Sequence record: PZ738962.1
From: a phage
Reading direction: 5' to 3' (one strand)
Length of the DNA: 64,000 bases
The notes beneath the pieces are model-generated. The model did not search any database, was not told the origin of the DNA, and saw only the letters and a list, made by a program, of their open reading frames with translations. The position numbers were made by a program, and so were the translations under genes. Of the stretch, positions 6,335 through 54,494 are shown piece by piece (the stretch's first letter is position 1; the number at the start of each line of letters is the position of its first letter).

Positions 6335-6366
6335 AAGCCGATCCATGTGGTCGGCTTTATTTTTAT
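6335..6366 (+). terminator. intrinsic terminator after gene 35
   Basis: hairpin AAGCCGATCC-ATGT-GGTCGGCTT followed by TATTTTTAT. Confidence 0.6.
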
Positions 6367-6484
6367 ACAGTTGGTTAAATTGTAACCAAAACGAAGAAAG
6401 ATCTTTAGAATAATAAAAATTTGTTTCGGTTAAAAAGTAGTCAGTGCCTACGGCACGTCGCGAAGCGATATTTTGTTAACATTC

Positions 6485-6492
6485 TATAAATA
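6485..6492 (+). promoter_or_regulatory. T4-type late promoter TATAAATA upstream of gene 36
   Basis: exact TATAAATA 34 nt before the gene 36 ATG. Confidence 0.6.
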
Positions 6493-6525
6493 CTCGGAAC
6501 TATAACTAATTTTTGAGGTTACTTT

Positions 6526-8016
6526 ATGGCAGATTTGAAATATGGATCTACTGTAGGTGGATCTCCCATTTGGACGCAAGGAAACTTGACGATCCAGCCA
6601 GCAGGGGATCAGCTTTTCTACAAAGGTCATAAAATCTATACCGCTTTTGATAGACCTTCGGCTACCGATTTTGATGCTGTTAGTGCATCCGAAGGTGGCA
6701 CATTTCAAAAGCAAGTTCATTTCGAGGAAGGTTTAAGCGTAGGTAGCGCATCGGCAGGTGAAACCAAAAAGAATGGTATCTTTAAAGGTCAGAGCGACGC
6801 TGCTAATTTTGACGGCGTAAGCTGGGGTTTGCATTCATGGAAGTCAATCGGCTTTGTTAATGCCCGTGATGGCGTTATTATGGCGTATATTGACACCACA
6901 ACGGGCGAATTTAAGTCTAAAGGGACTATCGAAGGGACAACCATTAAAGACACAGGTCAACGCGTCTATAGCCCTGTTAATAAACCAACGAATAATGATT
7001 TGGATTTAGTTTCCCGTCGCGGTGATACTCTCTCAGGAACGTATAATTTAAACACTGTCACTGTTAAACTATCGGTTGATTCGAAATTAATTGCAAGGGA
7101 ACGTGATTTAATTAATTTTGATGCGACTAAGATCTATTATGGTAACGTTCTTGATACGTTGGTCTTCCGAAGTAAAGATGAGCCTACCATTTTTGTTAAT
7201 GGCAAAGAAGGTCGTTTTTATCACACCAACAATAAACCAACTAAAGCCGATGTTGGGCTAGGCAATGTCACCAATGATGCACAGGTTAAACGTGCTGGTG
7301 ATATTATGGAAGGTAACTTGCAAGCGCCTAGAATGTTGGCGACAAACGATCCTGCTGGTCCTAATGAATTGGTTCGTTTGAGCTACTTTGAGAGAAAATC
7401 AATGGTAGCAAATCCAACCATCATTGGAAACGTTGATTGGAACACTCTTATTAATCGCGGTATCTATCGTGTGGAAAATGCTGGGTCGGGTACTAATAAA
7501 CCGTCTGATAGCTATTATAATGGCGTTTTGATGGTATATCGCCCAGAAGATGCGGTCGGTACTCGTCGAATTGTTCAGGTGTATTATCCTGAATCTATTG
7601 ACCATCCGATGTGCTGGCGTTCGTGTTCTAATGAATCATGGACTGCATGGAACTATGTAGATCACCGTAAATTAGCCGATATTCGCTATGTTAACGTAAC
7701 TGGCGATACCATGACAGGACCGTTAACTGTTCCGGCTGCAAACGGTGTTAGAACGGCTATAGGTGCATATAATGGTGATAACTACTATGCTGGGTTAAAT
7801 AGTGCCGATGGCACGGCTATGATTCACCGTATCAGCGATATTAAAGCCACTGAAAAATTGGGTATTACACATGATTCGAAAGCTGTTTTCGTTAAATCGC
7901 GTGGAAATACTCAAGCCACAGACCGCTATGAACTTTACCACGAAGGGCATAAACCTACCCCTGCCGAAGTTGGAGCGGTTCCACTTAATGCGGTGATTGA
8001 TTTTGGTACTTTCTAA
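6526..8016 (+). CDS. 36: long tail fibre distal connector gp36 (extended relative to T4)
   Basis: 496 aa; N-terminus MADLKYGSTVGGSPIWTQGN matches T4 gp36 start as recalled; T4 protein is much shorter. Confidence 0.8.
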   Translation: MADLKYGSTVGGSPIWTQGNLTIQPAGDQLFYKGHKIYTAFDRPSATDFDAVSASEGGTFQKQVHFEEGLSVGSASAGETKKNGIFKGQSDAANFDGVSWGLHSWKSIGFVNARDGVIMAYIDTTTGEFKSKGTIEGTTIKDTGQRVYSPVNKPTNNDLDLVSRRGDTLSGTYNLNTVTVKLSVDSKLIARERDLINFDATKIYYGNVLDTLVFRSKDEPTIFVNGKEGRFYHTNNKPTKADVGLGNVTNDAQVKRAGDIMEGNLQAPRMLATNDPAGPNELVRLSYFERKSMVANPTIIGNVDWNTLINRGIYRVENAGSGTNKPSDSYYNGVLMVYRPEDAVGTRRIVQVYYPESIDHPMCWRSCSNESWTAWNYVDHRKLADIRYVNVTGDTMTGPLTVPAANGVRTAIGAYNGDNYYAGLNSADGTAMIHRISDIKATEKLGITHDSKAVFVKSRGNTQATDRYELYHEGHKPTPAEVGAVPLNAVIDFGTF

Positions 8017-8021
8017 TTTTA

Positions 8022-8046
8022 GCGGGGATTATCTCCCCGCTTTTCT
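8022..8046 (+). terminator. intrinsic terminator after gene 36
   Basis: hairpin GCGGGGA-TTATC-TCCCCGC followed by TTTTCT. Confidence 0.55.
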
Positions 8047-8086
8047 AAATAATATTATTCTAATAACCGTTTAAGGATTTTATAAA

Positions 8087-11029
8087 ATGGCAGATTTAAG
8101 CAGAATCCAATTTAAACGCACTAGCACTAAAGGTCGTAAACCGGATGCTAGTACGATGAATCCGGGGGAATTGGCAATCAACCTTGCGGATCAATATCTT
8201 CTTACTAAAAATGATTCCGGTACTATTATCAATTTAAGTTGTCCTCCGGTTTATGACCGCGATGTTACAATGGCGGGTAAGGTTAAAGGTAATAATTATA
8301 TCTTAAGTAAAACCGCTAACTATCTGGAAGATCAGACAGCGAGAGATCTTAACTACTTTGGTGCTTTCCGTACCAATGGTCTTGATGGTCTTCTCGAACT
8401 CACGCTAAACGTTCCTCACTCTTCCGGTGTCCAACATGGTCGAGGATTTACTTTCCAGTATGGACATACTGGATCACGAGTAGAAACCTATGGCTATAAT
8501 AGAGAAGGTCAAAAAGCATTTAGCTATAAAATGTATCACGAAGGTGATAAACCAACTCCAGGAGAATTGAACGTCTATAGCAAACAAGAAGTTGACCGTA
8601 TGTTTGTTAAGAACGTTAAACTTGCTACATCTCCTAGTGATATCGTTGAAGGCTATTTTAAATTAGCAACTGCAATGATTCCACAAAACGGTCTTAGCGT
8701 ATTTTTCCGTATTCATGGTGGTAACGGATATAACGTTACTGCATACGATCAAGTTGATATTGTAGAAATTGTTATTCGCAGTGGAAATGGTCGCCCTAAA
8801 GGTGTTAACGTTATTGCATATCGCCGAAATACAAACAAATCATTTGATGTTTTGGCTGTTAATACTTCTGGTGATAACTATGATATCTATGTGAAATATC
8901 AGCGTTACACTGATAACGTTATTGTTGAATTTGGTAAAAGTGTTGGTGTTAATCTGGTAGTTCATGACGTTCCAGATTTTGTTGCTGAACGTCCTGCTGG
9001 TGATAATGTTATTGGCGGTCGTGCTGTAACTCTTTTCAACACCGAAAACAAACGAGGTGTGTTGAGTTTTGACGATAACACACAAAATAGTTATGATATT
9101 GTTCACTTGAGTAATGATAGGGGTACTGGACGAAAATATATTCGTAAATTCCGTAGCAACTATAATGAAATGATTTGGCATGAGACGGTTCAAGGTTCTA
9201 CTTATCGACTCGCCACGGGTAGTACAGATGCTCAGGAGATTCTAACCGTTGAATCTAGTAGCTCTATTTCTGGGACTCATAAAGGTAATATTCTTTCTGG
9301 TCGAATGATGTTGGGTGGCGGTAGTAATGTTATTACCTTGCGGCGTCCTGCTGGTCAATCCAACCATATTGCGTTTCAAGATAATCGTACTGGAGCTATT
9401 ACCCGTCAAGGGTGGATCGGTTATGGTAATGCTGATACTAACGTTTTTGAATGGTATAGTGATGTAGGTGGTAGTTCTATTCGTCACCACATCGACGGAC
9501 AGATCGAACTTGCAACCGGTAACACAAAACGCGTTTATACTAACGCTCAATTCATCTCAATGAATAGCGACGCCTACCGTATGATCTACGGTAATTATGG
9601 TGCATTCTGGCGTAATGATGGTGGTAAAGTTTATCTTCTTTCTACTGCCGAAAATGATACATTGGGCGGATGGAACGGCAACCGACCATTTATTTACGAT
9701 TTAACAACTGGTAAAGTTACTTTAGGTGGAGACGGTAACGAAGGCGCATTAGTTCTCGAAAGAGATAGCCGTGCGGCTAGATTTGCTGGCGACATTTACG
9801 TTGGCAAAGGGATGTTAACATTTGATGCCGGACGATTAAATTCTCGCGATTACTTCCGGTTTAACCATTGGGGCGATAGCAATAACGCGCGTGATAACAT
9901 TTTACAGCTTGACGATAGCATAGGTGCACACTTCACCACTGAACGTACTTTAGCAACTGGTGCAATTAAAACTAAATTCTTCGGTAATTTGGAATCTGCT
10001 GGTCAAATTAAATGGGGTAAAGGGACCGCCACATCTACGTTTACTCTACGTGTATGGGGTAGCGATAGCCGTAAACAAATATTTGAATGCGGCGATGAAA
10101 GCGGGTGGCATTGGTATACCCAACGCGCTGGCGGTCCAGATACTTCTGCAATTGAGTTTGCCATCAACGGTACTGTTCGGCCTCAAGCAATTCACACTGG
10201 CGGTAATATCACTATCAACGGTGCTGATATTGAGTTTCGTCGCACTGGCAATAAGCACATCTGGTTTAGAGATCCGAACGGTTTAGAATTGGGTCTGTTG
10301 TACTGCGATGATGCTGGTGTTATGCGTATGCGCGGTGAGAAACAAACCGAAGTCTGGAAATTCGGCGGTAAGATGATTCAACTTGAAACTGGTACTGTTT
10401 CCGGTGGAGGTAATGGCCTGATTCGTGGTTCTGTTGCTGGTGGTAGTTGGACTAGCTGGCGTGATCGTGCTTCCGGTTTACAGGTAGACTGTCAACAATC
10501 AACCGATTCCGCTCATAACGTATGGAAAGCAACCCATCAAGGTAAATATCATATAGCAGCAATGGGTGTACACGTTCCTAGCGGTACTATCGGAAATGCT
10601 ATGGTGCGTATGCACGTACACGATGCAACTTTTGACTGGGGTGCGAGCGGTGACTTCCAAGCAAGCCGTAATGGTAATTTTAACGATGTTTATATTCGTT
10701 CTGATGCTCGCCTTAAAATCAACAAGGAAGAGTATAAGGAGAATGCCACCGATAAAGTTAATCGCTTGACGGTATACACCTATGACAAGGTTAAATCTTT
10801 AACCGACCGTACTGTCATTGCTCATGAAGTTGGTATTATTGCTCAGGATCTTGAGAAAGAATTGCCGGAAGCAGTAACAACTTCTAAGGTCGGCGATCCT
10901 GATAAGCCAGAAGAGATCTTAACAATTTCTAACTCTGCTGTCAACGCTCTTTTAATTAAGGCGTTTCAGGAAATGAGCGAAGAATTGAAAGCCGTTAAAG
11001 CTGAACTAGCGGAACTTAAAAAGAATTAA
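8087..11029 (+). CDS. 37: long tail fibre distal subunit gp37 with C-terminal intramolecular chaperone domain
   Basis: 980 aa; N-terminus MADLSRIQFKR...GELAINL matches T4 gp37 pattern; C-terminus carries an SDARLK...GIIAQDL motif plus coiled coil. Confidence 0.85.
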   Translation: MADLSRIQFKRTSTKGRKPDASTMNPGELAINLADQYLLTKNDSGTIINLSCPPVYDRDVTMAGKVKGNNYILSKTANYLEDQTARDLNYFGAFRTNGLDGLLELTLNVPHSSGVQHGRGFTFQYGHTGSRVETYGYNREGQKAFSYKMYHEGDKPTPGELNVYSKQEVDRMFVKNVKLATSPSDIVEGYFKLATAMIPQNGLSVFFRIHGGNGYNVTAYDQVDIVEIVIRSGNGRPKGVNVIAYRRNTNKSFDVLAVNTSGDNYDIYVKYQRYTDNVIVEFGKSVGVNLVVHDVPDFVAERPAGDNVIGGRAVTLFNTENKRGVLSFDDNTQNSYDIVHLSNDRGTGRKYIRKFRSNYNEMIWHETVQGSTYRLATGSTDAQEILTVESSSSISGTHKGNILSGRMMLGGGSNVITLRRPAGQSNHIAFQDNRTGAITRQGWIGYGNADTNVFEWYSDVGGSSIRHHIDGQIELATGNTKRVYTNAQFISMNSDAYRMIYGNYGAFWRNDGGKVYLLSTAENDTLGGWNGNRPFIYDLTTGKVTLGGDGNEGALVLERDSRAARFAGDIYVGKGMLTFDAGRLNSRDYFRFNHWGDSNNARDNILQLDDSIGAHFTTERTLATGAIKTKFFGNLESAGQIKWGKGTATSTFTLRVWGSDSRKQIFECGDESGWHWYTQRAGGPDTSAIEFAINGTVRPQAIHTGGNITINGADIEFRRTGNKHIWFRDPNGLELGLLYCDDAGVMRMRGEKQTEVWKFGGKMIQLETGTVSGGGNGLIRGSVAGGSWTSWRDRASGLQVDCQQSTDSAHNVWKATHQGKYHIAAMGVHVPSGTIGNAMVRMHVHDATFDWGASGDFQASRNGNFNDVYIRSDARLKINKEEYKENATDKVNRLTVYTYDKVKSLTDRTVIAHEVGIIAQDLEKELPEAVTTSKVGDPDKPEEILTISNSAVNALLIKAFQEMSEELKAVKAELAELKKN
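10700..11026 (+). other. peptidase S74-like intramolecular chaperone (auto-cleaving) domain at gp37 C-terminus
   Basis: SDARLKINKEEY...VYTYDK...GIIAQDLEKELPEAV...coiled coil; matches the conserved SDxRxK / GxIAQ signature of endosialidase and T5 pb1 C-terminal chaperone domains. Confidence 0.65.
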
Positions 11030-11071
11030 GGAAAAATCCCAGGGAAGGGAAACTATTAAGGAGAAACGGCT

Positions 11072-11311
11072 ATGGTCTATAATATCGTCATTGGTGCTTT
11101 GTCTAGTTTCGGAATGAAACTATTATCAAAGTTAATTAGTGAAAAGATGCTCACTAAAATTTTCTTCTATTGCGCTCGTCGTCTTGCGGCCTATACCAAT
11201 ACGCCAATTGATGATCGTTTTGTGGAAGAACTTTATAAGGAGTTTAATAAAGATCAATCAGAAGATAGCAACGAGAAAGATAAACCTAGTGATAGTCAAG
11301 TACCTAAATAA
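11072..11311 (+). CDS. hypothetical small membrane protein (79 aa) between 37 and t
   Basis: ATG with AAGGAGAAACGGCT upstream; hydrophobic N-terminal helix then charged tail; overlapping alternative frame 11139..11327 judged less likely. Confidence 0.45.
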   Translation: MVYNIVIGALSSFGMKLLSKLISEKMLTKIFFYCARRLAAYTNTPIDDRFVEELYKEFNKDQSEDSNEKDKPSDSQVPK

Positions 11312-11344
11312 GAGTACACTGTCATAGTTATCTTAGGGCATTAT

Positions 11345-12001
11345 ATGCAAGTTTCTGAAAAAGAGAAAGACTTTGCTATCTCAAATGTCCTGCGCGCTAT
11401 TTTCACAACTAAAAGCACGGAGTTGCTCGTACTTCGTGTTTTTGCTGCCGTCGTGTTGTCCATATTAGCATTTGTCGTTTATAGTAAAAACGAGTTATTT
11501 GCGCTTTATAAAGAGACTCGTTATGAGACTTATGCTCACGTTCTCCAGGTAGAGAAAGACCGCAATTTTGATAATGCAGCACAGGAGCAGTTACAGATAG
11601 TTCATGTGTCGGCTGATGCCGATTTTTCTGCTGTTTTTAGCTTTCGTCCGAAAAACCTAAACTATTTTGTTGATTTGGTGGCATATGAAGGAAAGCTACC
11701 GCATACGATCGATGAAAAGAATTTAGGCGGGTTCCCTATCAATAAAACGAGTGAAGAATATCGTAGGCATCTTTTAGGTAAATCATATTTTACCGATAAA
11801 GATTTCCAGTATATTCCATCGAGGGAGAAAAAATTAGAGAATATCGATATAGGGTTTATGTATTCTTGTCCTATATTCAATCTCGATAATGTCTATTCTG
11901 GTAGTATCGCCATTGCATGGAAGAATAAACCGGATATTGACATTGAGAATTTGGATACTCTTTGCAATCAATCTGCCAGAATCCTCGGAAGGATTAGATA
12001 A
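11345..12001 (+). CDS. t: holin (lysis inhibition-sensitive T holin)
   Basis: 218 aa; strong similarity to T4 T as recalled (LEQLQIVHVSADADFSAVFSFRPKNLNYFVDLVAYEGKLP, FMYSCPIFNLDNVYSG, ARILGR). Confidence 0.9.
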   Translation: MQVSEKEKDFAISNVLRAIFTTKSTELLVLRVFAAVVLSILAFVVYSKNELFALYKETRYETYAHVLQVEKDRNFDNAAQEQLQIVHVSADADFSAVFSFRPKNLNYFVDLVAYEGKLPHTIDEKNLGGFPINKTSEEYRRHLLGKSYFTDKDFQYIPSREKKLENIDIGFMYSCPIFNLDNVYSGSIAIAWKNKPDIDIENLDTLCNQSARILGRIR

Positions 12002-12006
12002 CTTAA

Positions 12007-12040
12007 AGGGGAAGCCTTTCGGCCTCCCCTTCTTTTTTAT
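12007..12040. terminator. terminator hairpin at the convergence point of plus-strand late module and minus-strand early genes
   Basis: AGGGGAAGCC-TTTC-GGCCTCCCCT followed by TCTTTTTTA on plus strand; minus-strand gene 12037..12285 ends adjacent. Confidence 0.55.
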
Positions 12041-12285
12041 TGGCGCATAGAAGCCCCTGAATCACATTTTGACGCTGTATGATGAAAACAGGTAGCGTAC
12101 CAGTCATCGGCTTGTTTGTCTTCGTCAGAAAACGCGTAATTTCGTTGTATGCCGTTTTCTACTTTGACCAGCGCAATAGCTGTTTCTGGAAGATCAATCA
12201 ATCGGACAAAATCGCCATCTTCCCATTCTACACGAGCAATATCATAACCCATCTCAAAGTATACAATCGCTTGTTCTAATTTCAT
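12037..12285 (-). CDS. hypothetical small protein, possible DUF2829 (Tad2-like) fold
   Basis: 82 aa; pattern M-x-L-E-Q-A-I...G-x-x-I-A-R-x-x-W...DDW resembles DUF2829 N- and C-terminal motifs from memory; start overlaps upstream stop (ATGA). Confidence 0.5.
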   Translation of the reverse strand: MKLEQAIVYFEMGYDIARVEWEDGDFVRLIDLPETAIALVKVENGIQRNYAFSDEDKQADDWYATCFHHTASKCDSGASMRQ

Positions 12286-12593
12286 TCTGGAAACTTCCCG
12301 TAAATGTTCTCTGCCAACATACGCGCATCGCTAATGATATCTTTCATGCTATGACCGTAGTGTTCAGCCATTGAGTTGACACAATCAACAAAGAAATTAT
12401 AACGGCGACGGTTTAAGATTTCTTCTCTGCTATAGTTTTCATATTTGACGGTCGAGTGTGCTTTCTCGATTGCCTTGATTGCTATATTGACTTCATTGAT
12501 AATGGTTTTAGCATTGTATGCGCCACGACGGATCAGGATATTTGTCAATTCTCTTGCAATATCTTGCAATTCTTCATATTCATGTTCAAACAT
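12282..12593 (-). CDS. hypothetical protein (103 aa from ATG; track ORF extends to a TTG at 12614)
   Basis: ATG at 12593 preceded by GAGGT; coupled to downstream gene. Confidence 0.5.
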   Translation of the reverse strand: MFEHEYEELQDIARELTNILIRRGAYNAKTIINEVNIAIKAIEKAHSTVKYENYSREEILNRRRYNFFVDCVNSMAEHYGHSMKDIISDARMLAENIYGKFPE

Positions 12594-12617
12594 AATCAAC
12601 CTCGCAAAATACAATCC

Positions 12618-12950
12618 TTACAGATGAAAACCTGTTACGATCACCGCATCGATCTTACCGCTAGGAATAAACGGTTCGCCCTCTTTTATTTCAACTTTGA
12701 ATTGATGCCATTTCGCTAATACTTCTTCCGGTACACCCAGCGATTCGGCGTCTGCTTTAGTTTCATCCATAATCCAACTAGGCTGCATGAGAGCATAGTT
12801 TACATAGTCCATTTCTGGGGTCATGTCATCAATGTTAATATATTTGCAGTTGACGCGTTTCAGAATTTCAAATTCTTTATTGTCAACCTGTACCATGTAT
12901 AATTCAGTAGTTTCTGGAATCAGTTCCCACACAATCAGTACATTTTTCAT
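12618..12950 (-). CDS. hypothetical protein (110 aa)
   Basis: ATG with GTGAGGTG upstream; no family recognised. Confidence 0.55.
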   Translation of the reverse strand: MKNVLIVWELIPETTELYMVQVDNKEFEILKRVNCKYINIDDMTPEMDYVNYALMQPSWIMDETKADAESLGVPEEVLAKWHQFKVEIKEGEPFIPSGKIDAVIVTGFHL

Positions 12951-12958
12951 AGTTCACC

Positions 12959-13327
12959 TCACTTAACAAAGATTTTCTTTAATGCTTTCAGGATCGTTGC
13001 TTCCGGCGCTTCTTCCGGTGGAGGAAGCAATTCTACCACTTCCTCTTCCAACTCGATATAGTCTACCAGATATTCTACATAGAATGCAAGTGCTTCCATG
13101 AAATTAGATGCTACATCCGATTCACCACAAGCGCCTACATGCATTGTATAAACATCACTGCGATCAAGTTTGTGGATGCTTCCCAGATAGTTTCGGTTAT
13201 ACCAGACTTCCCACACTTTCAGCTTTCCGGTTTTGGTTGCTGTTTTATAATCGGTTTCGTAATGATGCAATTGACGTTGCAAATCATTGATAATAACACA
13301 TTTTTCGTAATTGTTTTGAATTTCCAT
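12959..13327 (-). CDS. hypothetical protein (122 aa)
   Basis: ATG with TGAGGATTACATC upstream; acidic C-terminus. Confidence 0.55.
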   Translation of the reverse strand: MEIQNNYEKCVIINDLQRQLHHYETDYKTATKTGKLKVWEVWYNRNYLGSIHKLDRSDVYTMHVGACGESDVASNFMEALAFYVEYLVDYIELEEEVVELLPPPEEAPEATILKALKKIFVK

Positions 13328-13337
13328 GATGTAATCC

Positions 13338-13529
13338 TCACTTATCGTTAAGAAGTTCTAAAACTTTCTGTCGTACTTTGTCAATATTAGTTGATTCAAA
13401 AACTGTACGGTATCCCCAGCTTTGACCGTATGATCGCGAGCAATCCCCATATCCCCATTGTTCAACCTGATAGTATTCAAGGAATGGGTGCTGCCGAACT
13501 ATGATACCATCGCGATTAAAAATTACCAT
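13338..13529 (-). CDS. hypothetical small protein (63 aa from ATG)
   Basis: ATG at 13529 preceded by GTGAGGATTAATATT; track start at 13544 is GTG. Confidence 0.45.
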   Translation of the reverse strand: MVIFNRDGIIVRQHPFLEYYQVEQWGYGDCSRSYGQSWGYRTVFESTNIDKVRQKVLELLNDK

Positions 13530-13553
13530 AATATTAATCCTCACGTCAACAAC

Positions 13554-13841
13554 TTATTTTCGGTTGTGGTCACGATATGTTTTAAAATATCCCTCGTACC
13601 ACGGTAAAATATCTGGATTTTTACCACTATACAGACCTTTAACCATCATGTCAATAAGGCCATCTGGTGTTTGATAGTTTCCAGCTTTTATAAGCTCTCT
13701 GATTAAAATCTCTCTGTATATGTCTTTCGGATCTTCGTAATCAACTTGTATTGTGGTTGTTGTCTCGCTTAATTTGGTTTCTGGAGTATCTTGCATCGCC
13801 TTCCACCAATCTTTTGTAATCTTCATGTTATTGAATTGCAT
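13554..13841 (-). CDS. hypothetical protein (95 aa)
   Basis: ATG with AAGAGGTTAAATT upstream. Confidence 0.5.
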   Translation of the reverse strand: MQFNNMKITKDWWKAMQDTPETKLSETTTTIQVDYEDPKDIYREILIRELIKAGNYQTPDGLIDMMVKGLYSGKNPDILPWYEGYFKTYRDHNRK

Positions 13842-13852
13842 AATTTAACCTC

Positions 13853-14611
13853 TTACTTGCAAACGTATTGATCTACATCAATTGCTCCACCGAATGTAGG
13901 ATGACGTTTTTCAAATCGAATAGTTCCGTCGTTTGGTTCGAAAACGGAGTATTCATATAGATCTTTCTTGCCAACATTCTTATAAAACCCGCCTTTAGTC
14001 ATAACGGTTTCTTGTACGTTTGCTTTGTGTACGTTGTATTCATCAATGTATACAAAATCAACCATCTTCCCATTTTTAATGGTTACTTTAAGATCCCCTG
14101 GCTGGTTTCCATATTTTGCATACAGTGGAGCCTCTTTAATTTTTGTGGAAATTCCATCTTTCATACTCCACTCATAACGAACGGTGCATTGATAGGTCAA
14201 AGTTTCGACCTTCGGTTCTTCTACCACTTTTGCCTCCTGTTTCGGTTGTTCTTCTTCAACCTTCGCAGAAGTCTCTGAATCGCTTTCTGACGCGGTTTCT
14301 TCTTTAGGTAATACATTCATCAAGTTTTGGATTTGAGCGTTATATACAGCCTCCAGTGGCTGAATCTGCCCGATATTGATCATTGTATCACGAACAGTTT
14401 TATTCCAGTTTCGTTGCTCTTGTTTCAGAGACGGATCAATCTTAACAGCCTTAACATATACTTCATGAAGTTTAGAGTCCAGTGCGGAGATAGACTCATT
14501 AGCACAAATAAACTTCTCTGATTTGGTAGTAGCTTTAGCGCAATCAAAGGACGCAGCGTTAGCACCGAAAGCAGTAGCAGAAAGAACGATAGCAGCGATA
14601 ATGTTTTTCAT
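13853..14611 (-). CDS. secreted protein with N-terminal DUF1311 (LprI-like) domain
   Basis: 252 aa; signal peptide MKNIIAAIVLSATAFGANA; FDCAKATTKSEKFICANESISALDSKLHEVY...QRNW matches DUF1311 Cys pattern; acidic linker; C-terminal domain with two Cys. Confidence 0.6.
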   Translation of the reverse strand: MKNIIAAIVLSATAFGANAASFDCAKATTKSEKFICANESISALDSKLHEVYVKAVKIDPSLKQEQRNWNKTVRDTMINIGQIQPLEAVYNAQIQNLMNVLPKEETASESDSETSAKVEEEQPKQEAKVVEEPKVETLTYQCTVRYEWSMKDGISTKIKEAPLYAKYGNQPGDLKVTIKNGKMVDFVYIDEYNVHKANVQETVMTKGGFYKNVGKKDLYEYSVFEPNDGTIRFEKRHPTFGGAIDVDQYVCK

Positions 14612-14645
14612 AATATATTCCTCAGTGTTTTGTCTTGATGGGAGT

Positions 14646-14674
14646 ATGTTACTACTCCCTTAATCCGGTGTCAA
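14646..14674 (-). promoter_or_regulatory. PeSL-type early promoter (TTGACA-N17-TAACAT) with GGGAGTA/TACTCCC stem-loop
   Basis: minus-strand TTGACA, 17-bp spacer, -10-like hexamer; inverted repeat spans spacer and -10; drives 13853..14611. Confidence 0.55.
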
Positions 14675-14685
14675 CTACTTTTAAA

Positions 14686-14985
14686 TTATTTTCGCCATTC
14701 ACCGGAAACAATAAAGTTTGTAAAGTGATCGTGGTCCATGATAACGTCATTAAGTACCATATGTGGATACACTTTAGTGATAATTTTACTAAGTACCATA
14801 TGCGGATATGCTTTAGTGTAATCACGTTTACGATCAGTCATCCAGTCAACGAAAGTTGGTGCAAAGTACGGTACACCGTCAGACGATGCCATATTAAACC
14901 CTTTATCAACCATAAATGCAGCCGCCCTAAGATTTTTAATTGAAGTAGTGCGACTAATTTCAAAAACTTTATCGGTAAAATTCAT
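14686..14985 (-). CDS. hypothetical protein (99 aa from ATG) containing an internal 39-bp tandem repeat
   Basis: ATG at 14985; contains KAYPHMVLS...KVYPHMVLN repeat encoded by imperfect direct repeat 14751..14822. Confidence 0.45.
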   Translation of the reverse strand: MNFTDKVFEISRTTSIKNLRAAAFMVDKGFNMASSDGVPYFAPTFVDWMTDRKRDYTKAYPHMVLSKIITKVYPHMVLNDVIMDHDHFTNFIVSGEWRK

Positions 14986-14986
14986 T

Positions 14987-15196
14987 TTAAGCCCCCGCTC
15001 GTGCATTAATACGCATTTTCTGTATAGCCATGATCTGGTTTACTGCTTCTTCTTTACGTTCTTGCGTGATAATGTGACCAGATTCCGCAAACTCTCCAGC
15101 AACTTCTTCTACGATCTCGCGAACTTGAGAACGTCCAAAGATGCGGTTTCCTTCGTAGCTCATAAACTCTGTTACTACTTGCTCGATAGATTTCAT
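14987..15196 (-). CDS. hypothetical small protein (69 aa)
   Basis: ATG preceded by GGAGAATCAC leader of a PeSL cassette. Confidence 0.55.
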   Translation of the reverse strand: MKSIEQVVTEFMSYEGNRIFGRSQVREIVEEVAGEFAESGHIITQERKEEAVNQIMAIQKMRINARAGA

Positions 15197-15225
15197 GTGA
15201 TTCTCCTTTCGTTTGGTATGGGAGT

Positions 15226-15254
15226 ATGTTACTACTCCCTTATCTTTACGTCAA
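15226..15254 (-). promoter_or_regulatory. PeSL-type early promoter (TTGACG-N17-TAACAT) with GGGAGTA/TACTCCC stem-loop
   Basis: same architecture and near-identical sequence as copy at 14646; drives 14987..15196. Confidence 0.55.
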
Positions 15255-15261
15255 CTAGTTT

Positions 15262-15504
15262 TTAGAAATTTTTCGCTTCTTCTTCGGTCATCATCACCGC
15301 GCATTCGTGCATAACTTTGAAAACCGGGTCAATCATATCGAATGCTTCGCTGGACAGTTTACGAGAAGCGATTTTGATTGCTTCAACGTCTTCTACTACA
15401 GGAACAAAAACAGTTTTCAGTTCGTCGAGCACGGCAGCTTCTTTTTCATTCAGGAAGATCCCAGCGTCGTACAGTGCAACTTCGATAACATTAACTTTAA
15501 CCAT
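15262..15504 (-). CDS. hypothetical small acidic protein (80 aa from ATG)
   Basis: ATG at 15504 preceded by GGAGGAAATAAAA; longer track ORF would run through the promoter. Confidence 0.5.
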   Translation of the reverse strand: MVKVNVIEVALYDAGIFLNEKEAAVLDELKTVFVPVVEDVEAIKIASRKLSSEAFDMIDPVFKVMHECAVMMTEEEAKNF

Positions 15505-15538
15505 TTTTATTTCCTCCAGTTCGTTTCGGTATGGGAGT

Positions 15539-15567
15539 ATAATACTACCGATGACCTTTGGCGTCAA
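15539..15567 (-). promoter_or_regulatory. PeSL-type early promoter (TTGACG-N17-TATTAT), degenerate stem-loop
   Basis: TTGACG, 17-bp spacer, TATTAT; conserved leader ACTCCCATACC...GGAGG; drives 15262..15504. Confidence 0.5.
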
Positions 15568-15769
15568 CTGCTTTTTTATTATTTTCGTGAAAATTTTTCG
15601 TCGCCTCATGTGCTTTTCGCTGGGCTTCTTGTTGTGCTTGCTGGCGTGCTGCCTCTTGTGAAGCCATAACGGAAGCATTTGCAGCAGTTACAGCCGCTAC
15701 CATCGCTGCGGTATTAGCATTTACAGTACATGCACTAGCCAGCAAAGCAATTGCAATCATTTTCTTCAT
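15545..15769 (-). CDS. small secreted or lipoprotein-like protein (74 aa)
   Basis: N-terminal signal-like MKKMIAIALLASACT then Ala/Gln-rich low-complexity region; ATG with AAGGGGAAAC upstream. Confidence 0.45.
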   Translation of the reverse strand: MKKMIAIALLASACTVNANTAAMVAAVTAANASVMASQEAARQQAQQEAQRKAHEATKNFHENNKKAVDAKGHR

Positions 15770-15936
15770 AGTTTCCCCTTTAGGTTATCTTCGACCTTCA
15801 CCCATTCCGCGTATTCTTGCGCGGCTACTTTCGGATTTAGTCCGTCTTCGTACATTGCTTCAAGTAATTCTTCGTCGGTGGGCTTATACCCTAGATAAGC
15901 CTTCACCTGATTTTTCCAAATTTTATACCAGTTCAT
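15766..15936 (-). CDS. hypothetical small protein (56 aa from ATG)
   Basis: ATG at 15936 immediately after upstream stop (TGATAATATG). Confidence 0.4.
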   Translation of the reverse strand: MNWYKIWKNQVKAYLGYKPTDEELLEAMYEDGLNPKVAAQEYAEWVKVEDNLKGKL

Positions 15937-15940
15937 ATTA

Positions 15941-16213
15941 TCACCAGTCAAGAGCGCGTGTCTCTGCGTCTTCCCATGCTTGATCCATAACAGCCTTGAA
16001 AACATATTCTAAAGTATCATCTTTAGAGAATCCGAAGACCTTAGACGGAATATCTTCAATTGCTACTCCCGCGACTTCTGCATTACGCGCTTGGCAATAA
16101 TGCAACTCTAAGTTATCGAGATAGCGACCGCCTAATTTCTCCATATCATCCCAGCATTTCCAGTAACCTACTTTATTTGCAATCGCTAACACCTTGCTGT
16201 TTTCGTTGTTCAT
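15941..16213 (-). CDS. hypothetical protein (90 aa from ATG)
   Basis: ATG at 16213 preceded by GGAGAATCAAAG leader. Confidence 0.5.
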   Translation of the reverse strand: MNNENSKVLAIANKVGYWKCWDDMEKLGGRYLDNLELHYCQARNAEVAGVAIEDIPSKVFGFSKDDTLEYVFKAVMDQAWEDAETRALDW

Positions 16214-16244
16214 CTTTGATTCTCCTTTTGTTTGGTATGTGTGT

Positions 16245-16273
16245 ATTATGCAATGATGGATTTGTGAAGTCAA
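16245..16273 (-). promoter_or_regulatory. PeSL-type early promoter (TTGACT-N17-CATAAT)
   Basis: TTGACT, 17-bp spacer, CATAAT, conserved ACACACATACCAAAC...GGAGAATCA leader; drives 15941..16213. Confidence 0.55.
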
Positions 16274-16280
16274 CAACTTT

Positions 16281-16314
16281 TTAAAATAAAAAAGCCGACC
16301 ACACGGATCGGCTT
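16281..16314 (-). terminator. intrinsic terminator (minus strand) after gene 16324..16719
   Basis: hairpin AAGCCGATCC-GTGT-GGTCGGCTT followed by U-run on minus strand; near-identical to the plus-strand terminator at 6335. Confidence 0.6.
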
Positions 16315-16323
16315 AATAATCAG

Positions 16324-16719
16324 TTACTTACTAAATTTCTTTTTGGCTTCGTCTACCGCATGAGATGCCAGTACCGCAGCCGCATGTGCACTTTTATCTG
16401 TGTTGCAGAGAACGCCCAGATAAACATCACGCCAAAGTTTAATCATCTCGTAGATCATATCAATATCATTTTCTTGTTTGTTGGCGATGCTATTCGTCGT
16501 TATCTGGTAAGGTAACGGCTTGATCTGTACTGGTTCCGCCATCGGGCTAATCGGTTTCGGATCAGTCATAATAGGTGCTGTTGTGGGTGGTGTTTTCCAT
16601 ACGTCATTATTCCACGGTTTAATCGTTGTATCGTAAAGTTTATAAGGATTTTTGTCTGGATTAACCATCCAGGCATGATGAGTACCCAAACCATTTGAAG
16701 TGATGCGTCGTTCAGTCAT
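16324..16719 (-). CDS. hypothetical protein (131 aa)
   Basis: ATG with GGAGGGAAAGT upstream; Pro/Thr-rich middle region. Confidence 0.55.
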   Translation of the reverse strand: MTERRITSNGLGTHHAWMVNPDKNPYKLYDTTIKPWNNDVWKTPPTTAPIMTDPKPISPMAEPVQIKPLPYQITTNSIANKQENDIDMIYEMIKLWRDVYLGVLCNTDKSAHAAAVLASHAVDEAKKKFSK

Positions 16720-16915: not shown

Positions 16916-16917
16916 AA

Positions 16918-18264: not shown

Positions 18265-18271
18265 CTTCACC

Positions 18272-50254: not shown

Positions 50255-50748
50255 TTCTCAGCCTTTAATCTTTCTAGTTCTTCTTCCAGTTCCTTGATCC
50301 GTTGGTCACGTTCAAAGTCACGCTGCAACTTAGTGGCGAATACTCGTTTAAACTGATTGTAATCATCGATTTTAAACACTTCTTCTTCGCCATAGCGACG
50401 TACAGAAACTTCGTAGTTATTGAATAATTGTTCCAACATTGCATCAGTAGTCAGTTCTGACGACACCACTTTAAAATAACGTTCTTCTGATTGCAAAAAC
50501 CAGTTGTGCGCGTATTCCCGTACATCATCAACATCTCGACAGGTGTATGTTTTTCCATCAATTTCAATCGCAGAAACATATTCGATATCTGAAGCAATTT
50601 TTTCAAAAGCGATAACTTTAAATGTACGGTCACCGATAAAGTCTGCTATTGCATCATTTGCAACACTGGTTGCAAATGCTTTCCGCGCTCGCTCGTTTTT
50701 CCACTGATAGGTCATACCAACAACAAACATATTACCATCAACAAACAT
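50251..50748 (-). CDS. paralog-family protein A1 (WKxxxAxxxF...IEIDG...ERYFKVV module)
   Basis: start at ATG 50748 with GAGGA upstream; 5' end contains an 18-bp perfect tandem duplication; shares module with 50750..59044 paralogs. Confidence 0.55.
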   Translation of the reverse strand: MFVDGNMFVVGMTYQWKNERARKAFATSVANDAIADFIGDRTFKVIAFEKIASDIEYVSAIEIDGKTYTCRDVDDVREYAHNWFLQSEERYFKVVSSELTTDAMLEQLFNNYEVSVRRYGEEEVFKIDDYNQFKRVFATKLQRDFERDQRIKELEEELERLKAEK

Positions 50749-50749
50749 A

Positions 50750-51574
50750 TTACCATCCTCGCTCTTTACCAATCAAAAATTCAACTTCACGACGTTTAAT
50801 GTCTTCTTGAAGGTCTTTAATCTTCTGGCGATCTTGCATGATTTCATCCATCTTGTCAAGTGCCGCAATGAAATCATCGAAACGTTCAAAGGTTTTACCT
50901 TCATTTGCTTCGCCAAATTTAACCATTGTCAGGCCGTAACGACTACTAAACAGACGTTTCAACTGTCCAACGATCTTAGAATCAGTGGTTATAACTTCCA
51001 ATTCTTCTACTTCACGAAAGAATTTTCTATCAGAATCAATAAACCAGCTAGTTCCTTTATGGTCTCTATCTTCGGTTGCGCTCATTAGAGTATGGTCTTT
51101 ACCATCAATTTCAATTACATCAATTTGCCCACATGGACGAACATTTTTAACAGTAAAAGGTCTATAATTTATTGCTCGTGCAATAACATAATTAAGATTA
51201 GATACGTTTTCAGCATAATGACAGAAGTCGGTCATAGCATTCGCATCTTTCCAAGTATAAGTTTTACCAACTTCCCATTTCTGGGGAACTTCTTCAACTT
51301 CACGAAAGAATTTTCGATCGAATGGACTAAAGAAATATGTTGCAGTCCAAATGTCTTTTCCTGTAGCAGTTTTCGCCGTATGATAAACACCGTCTAGCTC
51401 TATTGCATCAATCCAACCGTTATCATCGATCTCGATGATGGTAAATGGCTTGTCACCAATAGCTGCACTAATATCGCTGTTAAGTGGAGAAAGAACACCT
51501 TCTCCGTTAGTAATAAACTCAGTTTTAGCGTTTTCATCTTTCCAGGTGTAGGTTTTACCAATTTCCCATTTCAT
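50750..51574 (-). CDS. paralog-family protein A2 (two tandem copies of the module)
   Basis: 274 aa; MKWEIGKTYTWKD...FDRKFFREVEE then QKWEVGKTYTWKD...DSDRKFFREVEE; coiled-coil tail. Confidence 0.6.
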   Translation of the reverse strand: MKWEIGKTYTWKDENAKTEFITNGEGVLSPLNSDISAAIGDKPFTIIEIDDNGWIDAIELDGVYHTAKTATGKDIWTATYFFSPFDRKFFREVEEVPQKWEVGKTYTWKDANAMTDFCHYAENVSNLNYVIARAINYRPFTVKNVRPCGQIDVIEIDGKDHTLMSATEDRDHKGTSWFIDSDRKFFREVEELEVITTDSKIVGQLKRLFSSRYGLTMVKFGEANEGKTFERFDDFIAALDKMDEIMQDRQKIKDLQEDIKRREVEFLIGKERGW

Positions 51575-51586
51575 AATATATTCCCC

Positions 51587-52051
51587 TTAACCGATTTTAT
51601 CAAGTTCGTTTAATGCTTTCTCTGCTTCCTGTATAGCTTGCACCCTTTCCGGCATTTTGTCAAGAAAATCTTTCAACTCTTCAAAACTGGAGATATGACG
51701 CAATGCGTTAGCACCGATAGCCGCATGTGATTTGCATTCAAAGCGGATTTTATAATTATCCATCGCCAACTTGAGAAGATCAATTAATTTAGATTCTTCT
51801 GGAATAATAATTTCTTCAAATCTGCTACGGTCATGATCCAGAAACCAACAAGATAGACCTACATCGGTTGAACTCATATAAGTTCCATCATGAAGATAAA
51901 CAGACCGCACGTATCCTTTTTTCGCATCAACCGACGCAACTTTAAACGGTAATCGCAGATATTTCAAATAATCAACATCATACCATTTAAAAAATTGGTT
52001 TGCATCTTTTACATCTTTCCACGCATAGGTCTTACCAGCTTCCCATTTCAT
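51587..52051 (-). CDS. paralog-family protein A3
   Basis: start set to ATG 52051 (MKWEAGKTYAWKD) by paralog alignment; track ORF starts 5 codons upstream. Confidence 0.55.
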   Translation of the reverse strand: MKWEAGKTYAWKDVKDANQFFKWYDVDYLKYLRLPFKVASVDAKKGYVRSVYLHDGTYMSSTDVGLSCWFLDHDRSRFEEIIIPEESKLIDLLKLAMDNYKIRFECKSHAAIGANALRHISSFEELKDFLDKMPERVQAIQEAEKALNELDKIG

Positions 52052-52055
52052 AATA

Positions 52056-52583
52056 TCATCTCTCATTTTTGATACGTGATTCTAATTGGATCATACGGTC
52101 GCGCGTTTGTTTGTATTCTCGGATAGCACCGATCCGGCTAGGCATACCATCCAGTACGCTCTTAATACCTTCTAGGGTAGTGATTTTAGCAATGCTATTA
52201 TGCAACCCCATCTTATCGATCAACTGAATGTCGTAGGCTTCCATAAGCAGACCCAGACGTTCTAAAGTTAGGTCTTCTTCTTTTTCTTCAGAATCTGGAA
52301 TCTTAGGTTCAATAATAACTTCGGTAAAGAAACGACGCTCACCCGACCAAAACCACACACCGGAACAGCCAATAGGGGATTCTTTTAACGTCATAGAGTC
52401 GAAATCACTACCAATAATAGTAATTTCTCTAACATCACCATCATCGTCAAGGTCTTCTACCCTAAACGGGCGACCAGCCAACAAGTCAACAATACATCTG
52501 TTAATAGACGACGAAAATTTAGTCAGTTCGGCTTTCGACGCTTCGCATTCAATCTTGTAAGTTTTACCAACTTCCCATTCCAT
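52056..52583 (-). CDS. paralog-family protein A4
   Basis: start at ATG 52583 (MEWEVGKTYKIE) with TTGAGGTG upstream; ERRFFTEV motif. Confidence 0.55.
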   Translation of the reverse strand: MEWEVGKTYKIECEASKAELTKFSSSINRCIVDLLAGRPFRVEDLDDDGDVREITIIGSDFDSMTLKESPIGCSGVWFWSGERRFFTEVIIEPKIPDSEEKEEDLTLERLGLLMEAYDIQLIDKMGLHNSIAKITTLEGIKSVLDGMPSRIGAIREYKQTRDRMIQLESRIKNER

Positions 52584-52593
52584 AATAATCACC

Positions 52594-53096
52594 TCAAATA
52601 ATTTTCACTGGAATACTATTAACAATCTTGTATTGTACTTGATTGTCAGACCCCCGCCACGGCTTCTTCGTTGGCATATCTTTAATATAACGCCCATCGA
52701 TGAACATGTCAACTGATTCTACAATTTTTCTTTGCTCATCATTCAATTGGTCAAGGGTATAACCGGACCATAGCCAAATATCTTTATTTGGCATCCATGA
52801 TTTTACTTCATCGATGATCCGCTGTACACCCTTTAAATTGCGTTTATACAATGGATCGCCACCTAAGAATGTTAGCCCCTGAATAAAATCAGGTCTAAGC
52901 AGATCCAGAATCAATCCCATTGTATCATCGGTGAATGGTTCCCCGTTCTTAGGATTGAGTAGGCTAGCATTAAAGCAACCATCACATGCGTGTGAACATC
53001 CGGTAACGTAAAGGGAGACTCTCACTCCCTCACCGTTAACCATATCACAATCTTTAATATCGGCATAGCGTAGTTTGCCGTATGTATCAGAACTCA
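52594..53096 (-). CDS. nrdG: anaerobic ribonucleotide reductase activating protein (radical SAM)
   Basis: CxxxCxxC motif GCSHACDGC; similarity to T4 NrdG region; start at ATG 53096. Confidence 0.85.
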
Positions 53097-53239
53097 TATT
53101 CAATTACCCCGAACTCGTTTACAATCTGCGCTTTATAGTAACCACCGCGAGATGCTAATAGATAAGCTGGGCTTAGGTATTCGTATTCACGGATTTCTAC
53201 TTGTGCGTTTTCAGTTTCCCAAATCAGTAAAGTCCACAT
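53087..53239 (-). CDS. hypothetical small protein (50 aa from ATG)
   Basis: ATG at 53239 preceded by GGAGAATCAAAT leader downstream of PeSL promoter; track ORF start would lie upstream of the promoter. Confidence 0.4.
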   Translation of the reverse strand: MWTLLIWETENAQVEIREYEYLSPAYLLASRGGYYKAQIVNEFGVIEYEF

Positions 53240-53281
53240 ATTTGATTCTCCTGTAAAGTTGTATCTCGTCTTGATGAATAT

Positions 53282-53310
53282 AGTATAGGGGATCTCGCGA
53301 TCCCCGTCAA
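53282..53310 (-). promoter_or_regulatory. PeSL-type early promoter (TTGACG-N17-TATACT) with GGGGATC.../...GATCCCC stem-loop
   Basis: inverted repeat GGGGATCGCGAGATCCCC within spacer. Confidence 0.55.
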
Positions 53311-53314
53311 GCAT

Positions 53315-53842
53315 TTATTTTAAATTTTTTCGAATGTAGTCAGACCATTCCTTCCCTGTCAGTTCGGTCCCATTCTGGAAACTGAAATATTCATACGGCA
53401 TCGAGTCAAGATAAAACAGGATCATACATCGCGCCATATAATACCAATCACGATTAAAGTAAACTACGTTATCGCCAGTACCATCAGCACCTTTATCATA
53501 ACCATCGCGGGTACGGGCGACCCATTGAATAGTATCAGTTTTCTCACGGATCGTAACAGGTTCCCAATATCCAGCACATCCAGCATGACCACACGAACAA
53601 GTAAGGAAATATTGTCCTTTTGCTTTGTTGTCATCCCATTCACGATGGATTGGTTCGATCTCGTGAAACAGTGCTAAGCAATCATGATTATGCAACACTG
53701 GCTTACCATCAATCAATGCATGGAATGTATACAAACGACCAGTAGACAAATAGTTATCTTCTCGCTCTACAAGTTCAATAGCAATCTTTTTAGCTCGTTC
53801 TTTGTGTCGTTGTGCTTTACGCTTACGGTTTAATGATTTCAT
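53315..53842 (-). CDS. hypothetical Cys-rich protein (175 aa from ATG)
   Basis: ATG at 53842 with GTGTGAGGTG upstream; basic N-terminus; CSCGHAGCAGYWE cluster. Confidence 0.5.
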   Translation of the reverse strand: MKSLNRKRKAQRHKERAKKIAIELVEREDNYLSTGRLYTFHALIDGKPVLHNHDCLALFHEIEPIHREWDDNKAKGQYFLTCSCGHAGCAGYWEPVTIREKTDTIQWVARTRDGYDKGADGTGDNVVYFNRDWYYMARCMILFYLDSMPYEYFSFQNGTELTGKEWSDYIRKNLK

Positions 53843-53859
53843 ATTCACCTCACACATTA

Positions 53860-54399
53860 TCAAAGGTCGCGATATAGTACATTATGAAAATGAGAACTTG
53901 CATTACCAATATTGTAGATAATAAATTCTTCATCCGGCGCTTGCGCTACAAATTGAGTATGAGCAACCGCCACAACCTTAAAAATACGATCCGTGATCTT
54001 GTGTTTAATTTCTGCCCCTACTTCCATAGGAACATATTCATTTGTTTCTGTTTCAGTCGCAAAACAGCCATCTTCTTCATAAGCACGAACAAATCGATCG
54101 CAATCAGTACGCTTAACAAATTCAAGAGTATACAATTCTCGTGAATTGTCGGTATAGACCAATACAGAATTATTATGATAGCGAATCACATACAGGTTAT
54201 TATCATCGTCAATTACGCAAAAGCTACGGATTCCTTCGCCTTGACTCCAACAGATATTAACCACCGTTCCTCTAATAAAAAAACTTTCCTTTAAATTAAA
54301 ACTAGTCAATGTGCTAGCGTGCATTTTAACAACAACACCATCGCCAATTTCCAGTTTACGAAGTTTAACTTCTTTGTTCAGTACACAAAACATCATCAT
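53860..54399 (-). CDS. hypothetical protein (179 aa)
   Basis: ATG with ACGAGAGGACAAC upstream. Confidence 0.55.
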   Translation of the reverse strand: MMMFCVLNKEVKLRKLEIGDGVVVKMHASTLTSFNLKESFFIRGTVVNICWSQGEGIRSFCVIDDDNNLYVIRYHNNSVLVYTDNSRELYTLEFVKRTDCDRFVRAYEEDGCFATETETNEYVPMEVGAEIKHKITDRIFKVVAVAHTQFVAQAPDEEFIIYNIGNASSHFHNVLYRDL

Positions 54400-54428
54400 G
54401 TTGTCCTCTCGTTGTTTTCGATGTGAGC

Positions 54429-54456
54429 ATTATACATTAGCTAATCATGTTGTCAA
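54429..54456 (-). promoter_or_regulatory. sigma70-type early promoter (TTGACA-N16-TATAAT)
   Basis: consensus hexamers; drives 53860..54399. Confidence 0.55.
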
Positions 54457-54460
54457 CACC

Positions 54461-54494
54461 CCAAAACGAAAAAGCCGACCCTTTCGGATCGGCT
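54461..54494 (-). terminator. intrinsic terminator (minus strand) after nrdD
   Basis: hairpin AGCCGATCCGAAAGGGTCGGCT followed by UUUUCGUUUU on minus strand; same stem family as 6335 and 16292. Confidence 0.6.

Follow-up and report, generated by a model that had tools for sequence, protein, structure and literature searches.

Near-identical stem-loops at three sites in a Krischvirus genome: putative intrinsic terminators of a paralogous family, two of them in PeSL cassettes

The 64,000 nt of phage DNA in sequence record PZ738962.1, hereafter the window, carry one stem-loop sequence at three sites: S1 behind gene 35 on the plus strand, and S2 and S3 behind an open reading frame (ORF 16324–16719) and behind nrdD, respectively, on the minus strand. 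The three are best read as intrinsic terminators, S2 and S3 being the stem-loop halves of PeSL cassettes (early promoter plus stem-loop), and their near-identity as the probable result of common descent within a family of paralogous hairpins; for this reading, which is drawn from the sequence, we estimate a probability of about 0.78. The sites themselves are already known, as orthologues of terminators in published Krischvirus records, two of them in published PeSL cassettes, and beyond annotation their significance is small. Two modest additions are made here. The predicted terminators can be grouped by sequence into a few families, with a wobble in common, which suggests copying around the genome, and the observed recombination joints lie in longer promoter/untranslated region (UTR) or intergenic repeats and not in the stems, which refines where PeSL-type shuffling happens.

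Anatomy of the three hairpins

6335–6357, plus strand: hairpin S1, AAGCCGATC-CATGT-GGTCGGCTT, starting 10 nt past the gene 35 stop (6324)
6358–6368, plus strand: T-run of S1, TATTTTTATAC
16314–16292, minus strand: hairpin S2, AAGCCGATC-CGTGT-GGTCGGCTT, starting 9 nt past the stop of ORF 16324–16719
54494–54473, minus strand: hairpin S3, AGCCGATCC-GAAA-GGGTCGGCT, starting about 5 nt past the nrdD stop (54500)

Every copy lies on the coding strand, 4–10 nt 3' of a stop codon, and is followed by a T-run, the 3' tails read from the sequence being TATTTTTAT for S1, TTTTATTTT for S2 and TTTTCGTTTT for S3. Reuse of one hairpin in both orientations at 6335–6366, 16281–16314 and 54461–54494 had been proposed in an earlier note on the window, and both the reuse and these coordinates are correct. 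S1 and S2 are identical at 22 of 23 positions, four of the five loop bases among them, and S3 has the same arms with one additional C-G pair and the loop GAAA. The pattern AGCCGAYC N3-9 GRTCGGCT is matched three times in the window, at S1, S2 and S3, against 0.00 matches in 100 dinucleotide-preserving shuffles. All three fold into 9-bp hairpins (dG -12.5 to -16.6 kcal/mol, z -2.9 to -3.4) with 5–6 G-C pairs and loops of 4–5 nt, and all were flagged by a terminator scan. A U·G wobble occupies the same place in all three stems (T8·G16 in S1 and S2), and the 5' arm of each contains one GATC, the 3' arm GGTC.

A U-tract is present on the transcribed strand only, the opposite strands reading TTGTTAAAA, TAATAATC and GAAATTTAC at S1, S2 and S3. 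Antisense RNA hairpins match the sense ones in stability at S1 and S2 and are weaker at S3, indicating that direction is set by the T-run; the idea that the wobble makes the hairpins one-directional was rejected on the same grounds.

Genomic setting and PeSL architecture

Megablast queries with 5000–9000, 12000–20000 and 51500–57500 matched about 59 phage records, all Krischvirus, with 93–99.5% identity, and the window thus belongs to this genus (RB49/phi1/JSE group). The plus-strand genes at 1409–12001 are the late tail-fibre genes 34, 35, 36 and 37, a small ORF and the holin gene t. The minus strand from 12037 onwards holds a hyperplastic region of small ORFs, gp52, rIIB and rIIA and, further on, nrdD (54500–56362). 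The regulatory elements that adjoin the three hairpins are as follows.

6485–6492, plus strand: T4-type late promoter core TATAAATA, about 40 nt before the gene 36 ATG (about 6526)
16245–16291, minus strand: T-run/AT-rich upstream region and then the sigma-70 promoter TTGACT-17-CATAAT (16273–16245), following S2
16209–16246, minus strand: -10 box, 5'UTR and Shine–Dalgarno segment CATACCAAACAAAAGGAGAATCAAAGATG, downstream of S2
54429–54472, minus strand: T-run TTTTCGTTTTGGGGTG and then the sigma-70 promoter TTGACA-16-TATAAT (54456–54429), following S3

S1 sits in the 200-nt gap that separates genes 35 and 36. The window has just two TATAAATA late-promoter cores, one of them ahead of gene 36, and a search of 6300–6560 for sigma-70-like promoters gave 0 sites, so that S1 looks like the terminator of the late g34–g35 unit. 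It is not a PeSL, as it is a hairpin without an early promoter, belongs to a late operon and lies on the other strand. S2 and S3 are followed at once by near-consensus sigma-70 promoters, with 10 of 12 and 12 of 12 consensus matches and with 18 and 16 nt, respectively, between the hairpin end and the -35 hexamer, which identifies them as the stem-loop halves of PeSLs. Both elements are bounded upstream by the stop codon of the preceding gene and downstream by a Shine–Dalgarno sequence and an ATG (S2 ...AAAAGGAGAATCAAAGATG; S3 ...GAGAGGACAACATGATG). S2 is located at the edge of the hyperplastic region, where this borders the conserved gp52 block, and S3 belongs to the nrdD PeSL. The earlier note had likened the hairpins to the PeSL promoters; the connection is real, but S2 and S3 are themselves parts of PeSLs, directly upstream of the promoters, and not merely similar to them.

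On this architecture, RNA from the coding strand would fold into a 9-bp GC-rich hairpin followed by a U-run and so release the E. coli RNA polymerase just past the stop codon. In the S2 and S3 cassettes the order terminator, AT-rich region or T-run, strong sigma-70 early promoter, Shine–Dalgarno sequence and ATG would insulate one early transcription unit from the next and then restart transcription, the T-run doubling as the AT-rich upstream region of the promoter. S1 would be a stand-alone copy that ends the late g34–g35 transcript, with gene 36 restarting 130 nt further on from the TATAAATA late promoter.

Conservation in relatives

BLAST found the S1, S2 and S3 regions in all of the approximately 59 Krischvirus records, and the relatives whose sequences were read (8 for S1, 9 for S2 and 6 for S3) all have the respective site. 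In S1 and S2 the stems do not vary among them, and the loops are CATGT or CTCGT in S1 and CGTGT or CTTGT in S2. S3 is identical in five of six relatives and differs in JSE by one C>T, which leaves a G·U pair on the transcribed strand and none on the other. Of 54 stem positions 1 is variable, and of 14 loop positions 3 are (Fisher p=0.025). The S1 and S2 loops vary independently across genomes; concerted evolution of the pair was therefore rejected, and nothing points to continuing gene conversion between them. A search with the ORF upstream of S2 gave only two Krischvirus-like contigs, and GenBank records were used instead.

The record of Krischvirus GEC-3S (HE978309) labels the orthologues of S1, S2 and S3 as "terminator" and also labels the promoters that follow S2 and S3. 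Terminator features at these positions are likewise found in the records of G2248, TB34, the Makalu phages, G37-3 and G2494. The description of the hairpins as terminators is thus supported as far as can be read from the letters: a GC-rich hairpin and U-run on the coding strand past a stop codon, conserved, and annotated as such independently by other groups.

In GEC-3S the label "terminator" is also given to the orthologues of two hairpins of another stem, which the earlier note had placed at 8022 and 56376. Both hairpins are real, the second beginning at 56380 and not at 56376.

8021–8041, plus strand: hairpin AGCGGGGA-TTATC-TCCCCGCT and then TTTTCT, between genes 36 and 37
56397–56380, minus strand: hairpin AGCGGGA-GAAA-TCCCGCT and then TTTTTC, between ORF 56407–56901 and the nrdD start

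The two differ by one G-C pair, and the pattern of this second stem has two matches in the window against 0 expected.

Terminator families in GEC-3S

The full GEC-3S genome was assembled from four fetched pieces for a genome-wide scan. The exact stem pattern occurs there at the same three orthologous sites and nowhere else, and near-copies of the AGCCGAYC/GRTCGGCT stem, with at most one mismatch per arm, occur at four more sites. The 35 annotated terminators of GEC-3S fall into about four stem families:

Family A: GCCxxxCC-loop-GGxxxGGC-Tn, 13 members, including S1, S2, S3 and the terminators after hoc and gp32
Second family: GGGGCGTTAAGCCCC, three copies, at 83050, 115434 and 119457
Third family: GCGGGGA/GGCGGGA, six copies, containing the second stem described above
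Fourth family: GGGAGACTC...GGGTCTCCC, three copies

Within a larger paralogous family, whose remaining members lie outside the window, S1, S2 and S3 are accordingly the three that resemble one another most, and the notion of a reused module, as first put forward, was if anything an understatement. S1 and S2 are the most similar of the 595 pairs among the 35 terminators. Fourteen pairs have a normalised similarity of 0.6 or more, against 0.16–0.40 such pairs in shuffles that preserve the base pairs, loop composition and length of each hairpin (maximum 3 in 300 trials), and similarity at the level of S1 and S2 was reached in at most 0.7% of these structure-preserving trials.

With the stems registered from the loop, 9 of the 13 family-A members have the U·G wobble at the equivalent position, and at other positions the changes are paired, for example G-C, A-T, T-A and C-G at pairs 4–5. 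Some members keep the structure with another sequence (GCCAATCC/GGGTTGGC, GGCTATCC/GGGTAGCC and GCCACCC/GGGTGGC), and most are without GATC. The comparison rests on a loop-anchored pair table; a MAFFT/RNAalifold treatment of the 13 paralogous hairpins was discarded, as unequal arms lost the stem register and the resulting 2-pair "consensus" was meaningless.

The sequences that follow the hairpins recur as well. The S3 tail TTTTTCGTTTTnGGGTGTTGACAA is common to five other terminator-promoter composites of GEC-3S (45699, 48111, 61064, 74977 and 131848), the S2 tail resembles the tails at 59090, 119093 and 140225, and the S3 composite is found by BLAST at 3–5 places per Krischvirus record.

Common descent or convergence

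The near-identity of S1, S2 and S3 would on our interpretation stem from descent within the paralogous 'GCCxxxCC-loop-GGxxxGGC-Tn' family, with about 13 members per Krischvirus genome, the members having been copied around with or next to PeSLs and the stem having then been held by purifying selection. The shared U·G wobble would be hard to obtain by convergence and favours common descent.

Several points weigh against this interpretation. Local alignment of the 40–60 nt flanks of S1, S2 and S3 against shuffles gave no significant homology, the DNA that they share is limited to about 23 nt, and common descent is to that extent not proven. The shuffling null does not fully capture the design constraints of terminators (GC-rich stem base, C-G loop closure, tetraloops). 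Despite the shared wobble, the antisense hairpins of S1 and S2 equal the sense ones in stability. With regard to termination, the GenBank "terminator" features are themselves predictions, no Krischvirus transcriptome, term-seq or terminator mapping was found in the literature searched, and the U-run of S1 is interrupted (UUUAUUUUUAU) and that of S3 contains CG (UUUUUCGUUUU), so that efficiency may be partial.

The main rival is convergence, in which the three stems are independent solutions to the requirement for a strong terminator within a narrow design space. Generic features are indeed found in all family members (an A-run, a GCC/GGC stem base, C-G loop closure, GAAA or TTCG loops), and the missing flank homology would be expected. 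A degenerate form of the hairpin pattern occurs in at least 120 unrelated IMG/VR contigs, which by a rough estimate is about chance for a database of that size and is thus uninformative about the hairpin, although it fits a small design space. Convergence has difficulty with the agreement of S1 and S2 at 22 of 23 positions and with the 14 similar pairs, which the shuffles never approach, and with the same non-optimal wobble in 9 of 13 members. The hairpin is also essentially absent from the host: 5,426 E. coli genomes gave three marginal 22-nt matches in two genomes (E=4), and an origin of the hairpin in the host was rejected for this reason. Convergence is on balance an unlikely explanation, though the strongest of the alternatives.

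A more far-reaching version of descent is also conceivable, in which the Krischvirus terminator hairpins form a paralogous mobile family that spreads without the PeSL promoter, S1 being an orphan copy on the opposite strand in a late operon and the wobble perhaps serving strand discrimination or factor recognition. We regard it as speculative and as rather doubtful in this form; if true, phage terminators would be inherited by copy-and-paste and not evolved in place. A related suggestion, that S1 carries a decayed S2 promoter (AGTTGGTTAAAT compared with AGTTGTTGACTT), was dropped as unsupported, there being no significant flank similarity.

Recombination near the hairpins

The earlier note had further suggested that the hairpins could be recombination hotspots, their copies delimiting exchangeable gene cassettes. 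In favour of this are the position of S2 where the gp52 block meets a hyperplastic region of variable content (79–100% coverage, in multiple pieces), an additional ORF beside S2 in two relatives, a diverged block in JSE that ends at the S3 PeSL, and the PeSL-mediated shuffling documented for RB49 and phi1 (Arbiol et al. 2010, PMC2839356; Comeau et al. 2014, PMC4122927). Examined site by site, the joints are found elsewhere.

At S1 no break in identity was seen in 7 relatives, with 94–100% on both sides. Mosaic boundaries fall inside g36 (about 7700–8000) and g37.

At S2 no break was found in 5 of 7 genomes. The other two, SSG23 and pEJ01, have an extra 207-nt ORF (68 aa) with its own PeSL directly downstream of the S2 promoter (SSG23 12598–12834 and pEJ01 12030–12266, in coordinates of the fetched loci). 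This insert is flanked on both sides by a duplicated segment of about 38 nt with the -10 box, 5'UTR and Shine–Dalgarno sequence (16209–16246 in the window), 50–100 nt downstream of the S2 hairpin, and the duplication marks the actual recombination joint near S2. The second PeSL of the insert has a different hairpin, GGGAGTAGTAACATACTCCC.

The same GGGAGTAGTAACATACTCCC hairpin, overlapping the -10 box and joined to a shared 5'UTR, characterises the classical PeSL repeats of the window, which are all on the minus strand:

14638–14694, minus strand: classical PeSL repeat
15198–15242, minus strand: classical PeSL repeat
15511–15587, minus strand: classical PeSL repeat
16217–16246, minus strand: classical PeSL repeat

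Indels at PeSL repeats set the window apart from phi1, RB49, JSE, pEJ01 and GEC-3S in the hyperplastic region (12037–16276). The breakpoints there (about 14687, 15275, 15520–15587 and 15779) coincide with the first three of these repeats, as the published model of PeSL shuffling would have it. Four relatives lack 15275–15779.

At S3 a divergence boundary is seen only in JSE (1 of 6 genomes), where the diverged block 53300–54500 extends up to the PeSL; divergence in SSG23, KFS-EC and KMB43 stops near 53900, at a gene border. The association with variable regions thus amounts to an insert beside S2 in 2 of 7 genomes and a boundary at S3 in 1 of 6, with joints in the promoter/UTR and not in the hairpin. 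Strands and spacing agree in the records compared, with nothing to suggest that the DNA between S1 and S2 has been inverted or that between S2 and S3 deleted. With homology of only about 23 nt between the copies and flanks that are not significantly similar, a role of the hairpins themselves as hotspots is improbable, clearly more so than convergence, and the claim that they delimit exchangeable cassettes is not supported. The idea of hotspots and cassette borders holds for PeSLs as wholes, as already published, and not for these hairpins.

Other variable stretches were noted in the vicinity. The C-terminal part of gene 36 (7700–8000) and the N-terminal part of gene 37 (8100–9000) are mosaic, with 70–85% identity or lower; the g36/g37 intergenic region of about 100 nt between them (8001–8100), with the hairpin of the second stem, is a conserved island of 94–100%; and Skers has a different g37 plus an adhesin gene. 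Near nrdG, mosaic or indel blocks lie at 52062–52558, 50450–50750, 51800–52050 and 53300–53900, with boundaries at gene borders and not at hairpins. KFS-EC is without about 500 nt in the region of ORF 52056–52592, and ORF 53315–53863 has a version only about 50–75% identical in SSG23, KFS-EC, JSE and KMB43. In JSE the insertion of a homing-endonuclease gene divides nrdD into two ORFs (JSE locus 5511–6260; window about 55492), and nrdD is intact in the window.

Within the hyperplastic region, two 39-nt units in tandem, 82% identical (TGATAACGTCATTAAGTACCATATGTGGATACACTTTAG), occupy 14739–14816, inside or next to ORF 14686–15006. A hairpin GGGGAAGCCTTTCGGCCTCCCC, present on both strands at about 12007–12030, separates the convergent holin gene t (plus strand) and the first minus-strand hyperplastic ORF, and GEC-3S annotates it as a terminator on both strands.

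The 110-nt repeat beside S1 and a possible rearrangement in LF73P4

6371–6480, plus strand: repeat of about 110 nt (TTGGTTAAATTGTAACCAAAACGAAGAAAGATCTTTAGAATAATAAAAATTTGTTTCGG...GTGCCTACGGCAC GTCGCGAAGCGA), immediately 3' of S1 and just upstream of the gene 36 late promoter, outside the hairpin family

A BLAST query with the g35–g36 intergenic region hits about four places per record. In GEC-3S a second copy of the repeat is inverted and located just upstream of gp3 (63140–63250, 98.8% over 86 nt), and two partial copies (98755–98812 and 98899–98962) follow another family-A terminator. The first hairpin of the repeat shows a compensatory change between copies (TTGGT/ACCAA and TTGAT/ATCAA).

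Krischvirus LF73P4 (OZ035795.1) matches the intergenic query only from position 52, just past S1, and is the only record without the S1 end of the match. Relative to all other records it shows a possible inversion of about 86 kb, and both reciprocal junctions fall in the repeat:

Locus L139, 3001–3110: junction 1, with the gp2 side, the repeat and g36
Locus L140, about 340–450: junction 2, with gp3, the repeat and the reverse complement of S1 and g35

Whether the inversion is genuine or the assembly was flipped, the breakpoint is the 110-nt repeat and not the hairpin, and S1 remains attached to gene 35, which is a further point against the hairpins as hotspots.

Pairing or sequence recognition

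The hairpin might also be a sequence-specific element and not primarily a terminator, for example a 3' mRNA-stabilising hairpin, a site for an RNase or phage protein, or a Dam (GATC) DNA signal. Not only the pairing but the stem sequence itself is unchanged across the relatives read and the same behind three unrelated genes, with one GATC (5' arm) and GGTC (3' arm) per copy, and this phage group encodes Dam and a RegB-like RNase. Other family members keep the structure with a different sequence, mostly without GATC, indicating selection on pairing, and the T-run and post-stop position are fully explained by termination. Rfam gave no match for the whole window at the gathering score or for 6250–6600 at E<=1. 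We consider such an element quite improbable, slightly more so than the hotspots.

That S1 and S2, which as inverted repeats about 10 kb apart flank receptor-binding tail-fibre genes that are mosaic among relatives, enclose a host-range and lysis segment open to inversion or exchange (g36, g37, the adhesin gene, t and the hyperplastic region) can practically be dismissed, with a repeat of only 23 nt, mosaic boundaries inside g36 (about 7700–8000) and g37 and not at S1, no invertase evident and no record that suggests an inversion.

Comparison with known systems

Intrinsic termination by a paralogous family of hairpins thus remains the preferred interpretation. In structure S1, S2 and S3 do not differ from canonical Rho-independent terminators of E. 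coli and T4-type phages, which have the same 9-bp GC-rich stem, 4–5-nt loop, U-run and upstream A-run and the same placement a few nucleotides past the stop codon. The departure lies in several near-identical copies per genome that share a U·G wobble.

REP and BIME repeats (repetitive extragenic palindromes and bacterial interspersed mosaic elements) are short GC-rich palindromes that also occur at gene 3' ends in either orientation; they are present in hundreds of copies, do not require a T-run and are bound by host factors. The present family comprises three exact and about 13 related copies, all followed by a T-run, and the sequence was not found in E. coli beyond the marginal matches given above.

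A close likeness is to the PeSLs of the same phage genus, with S2 at the edge of the hyperplastic region and S3 after nrdD, which is named together with hoc among the PeSL-associated genes by Arbiol et al. 2010 (PMC2839356). In the same paper, which described the cassettes for RB49 and phi1, PeSLs with the stem-loop upstream of the -35 box form one of five subclasses, and one PeSL stem-loop (211/210), different from those treated here, terminated as well as rrnB T1 in a lacZ assay. A difference is that the RB49 and phi1 stem-loops are given there as polyG-loop-polyC (GN-loop-CN) (PMC2839356, PMC4122927), and in the available text of these papers GCCGATCC-type stems, a grouping into families and the triple reuse are not described. 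Morons of the Hendrix type, a comparison already made in the discussion of PMC2839356, are likewise small genes with their own promoter and terminator, as in the hyperplastic region beside S2, but the flanks of morons are not conserved repeats, whereas the regulatory pieces that flank the genes here belong to repeated families.

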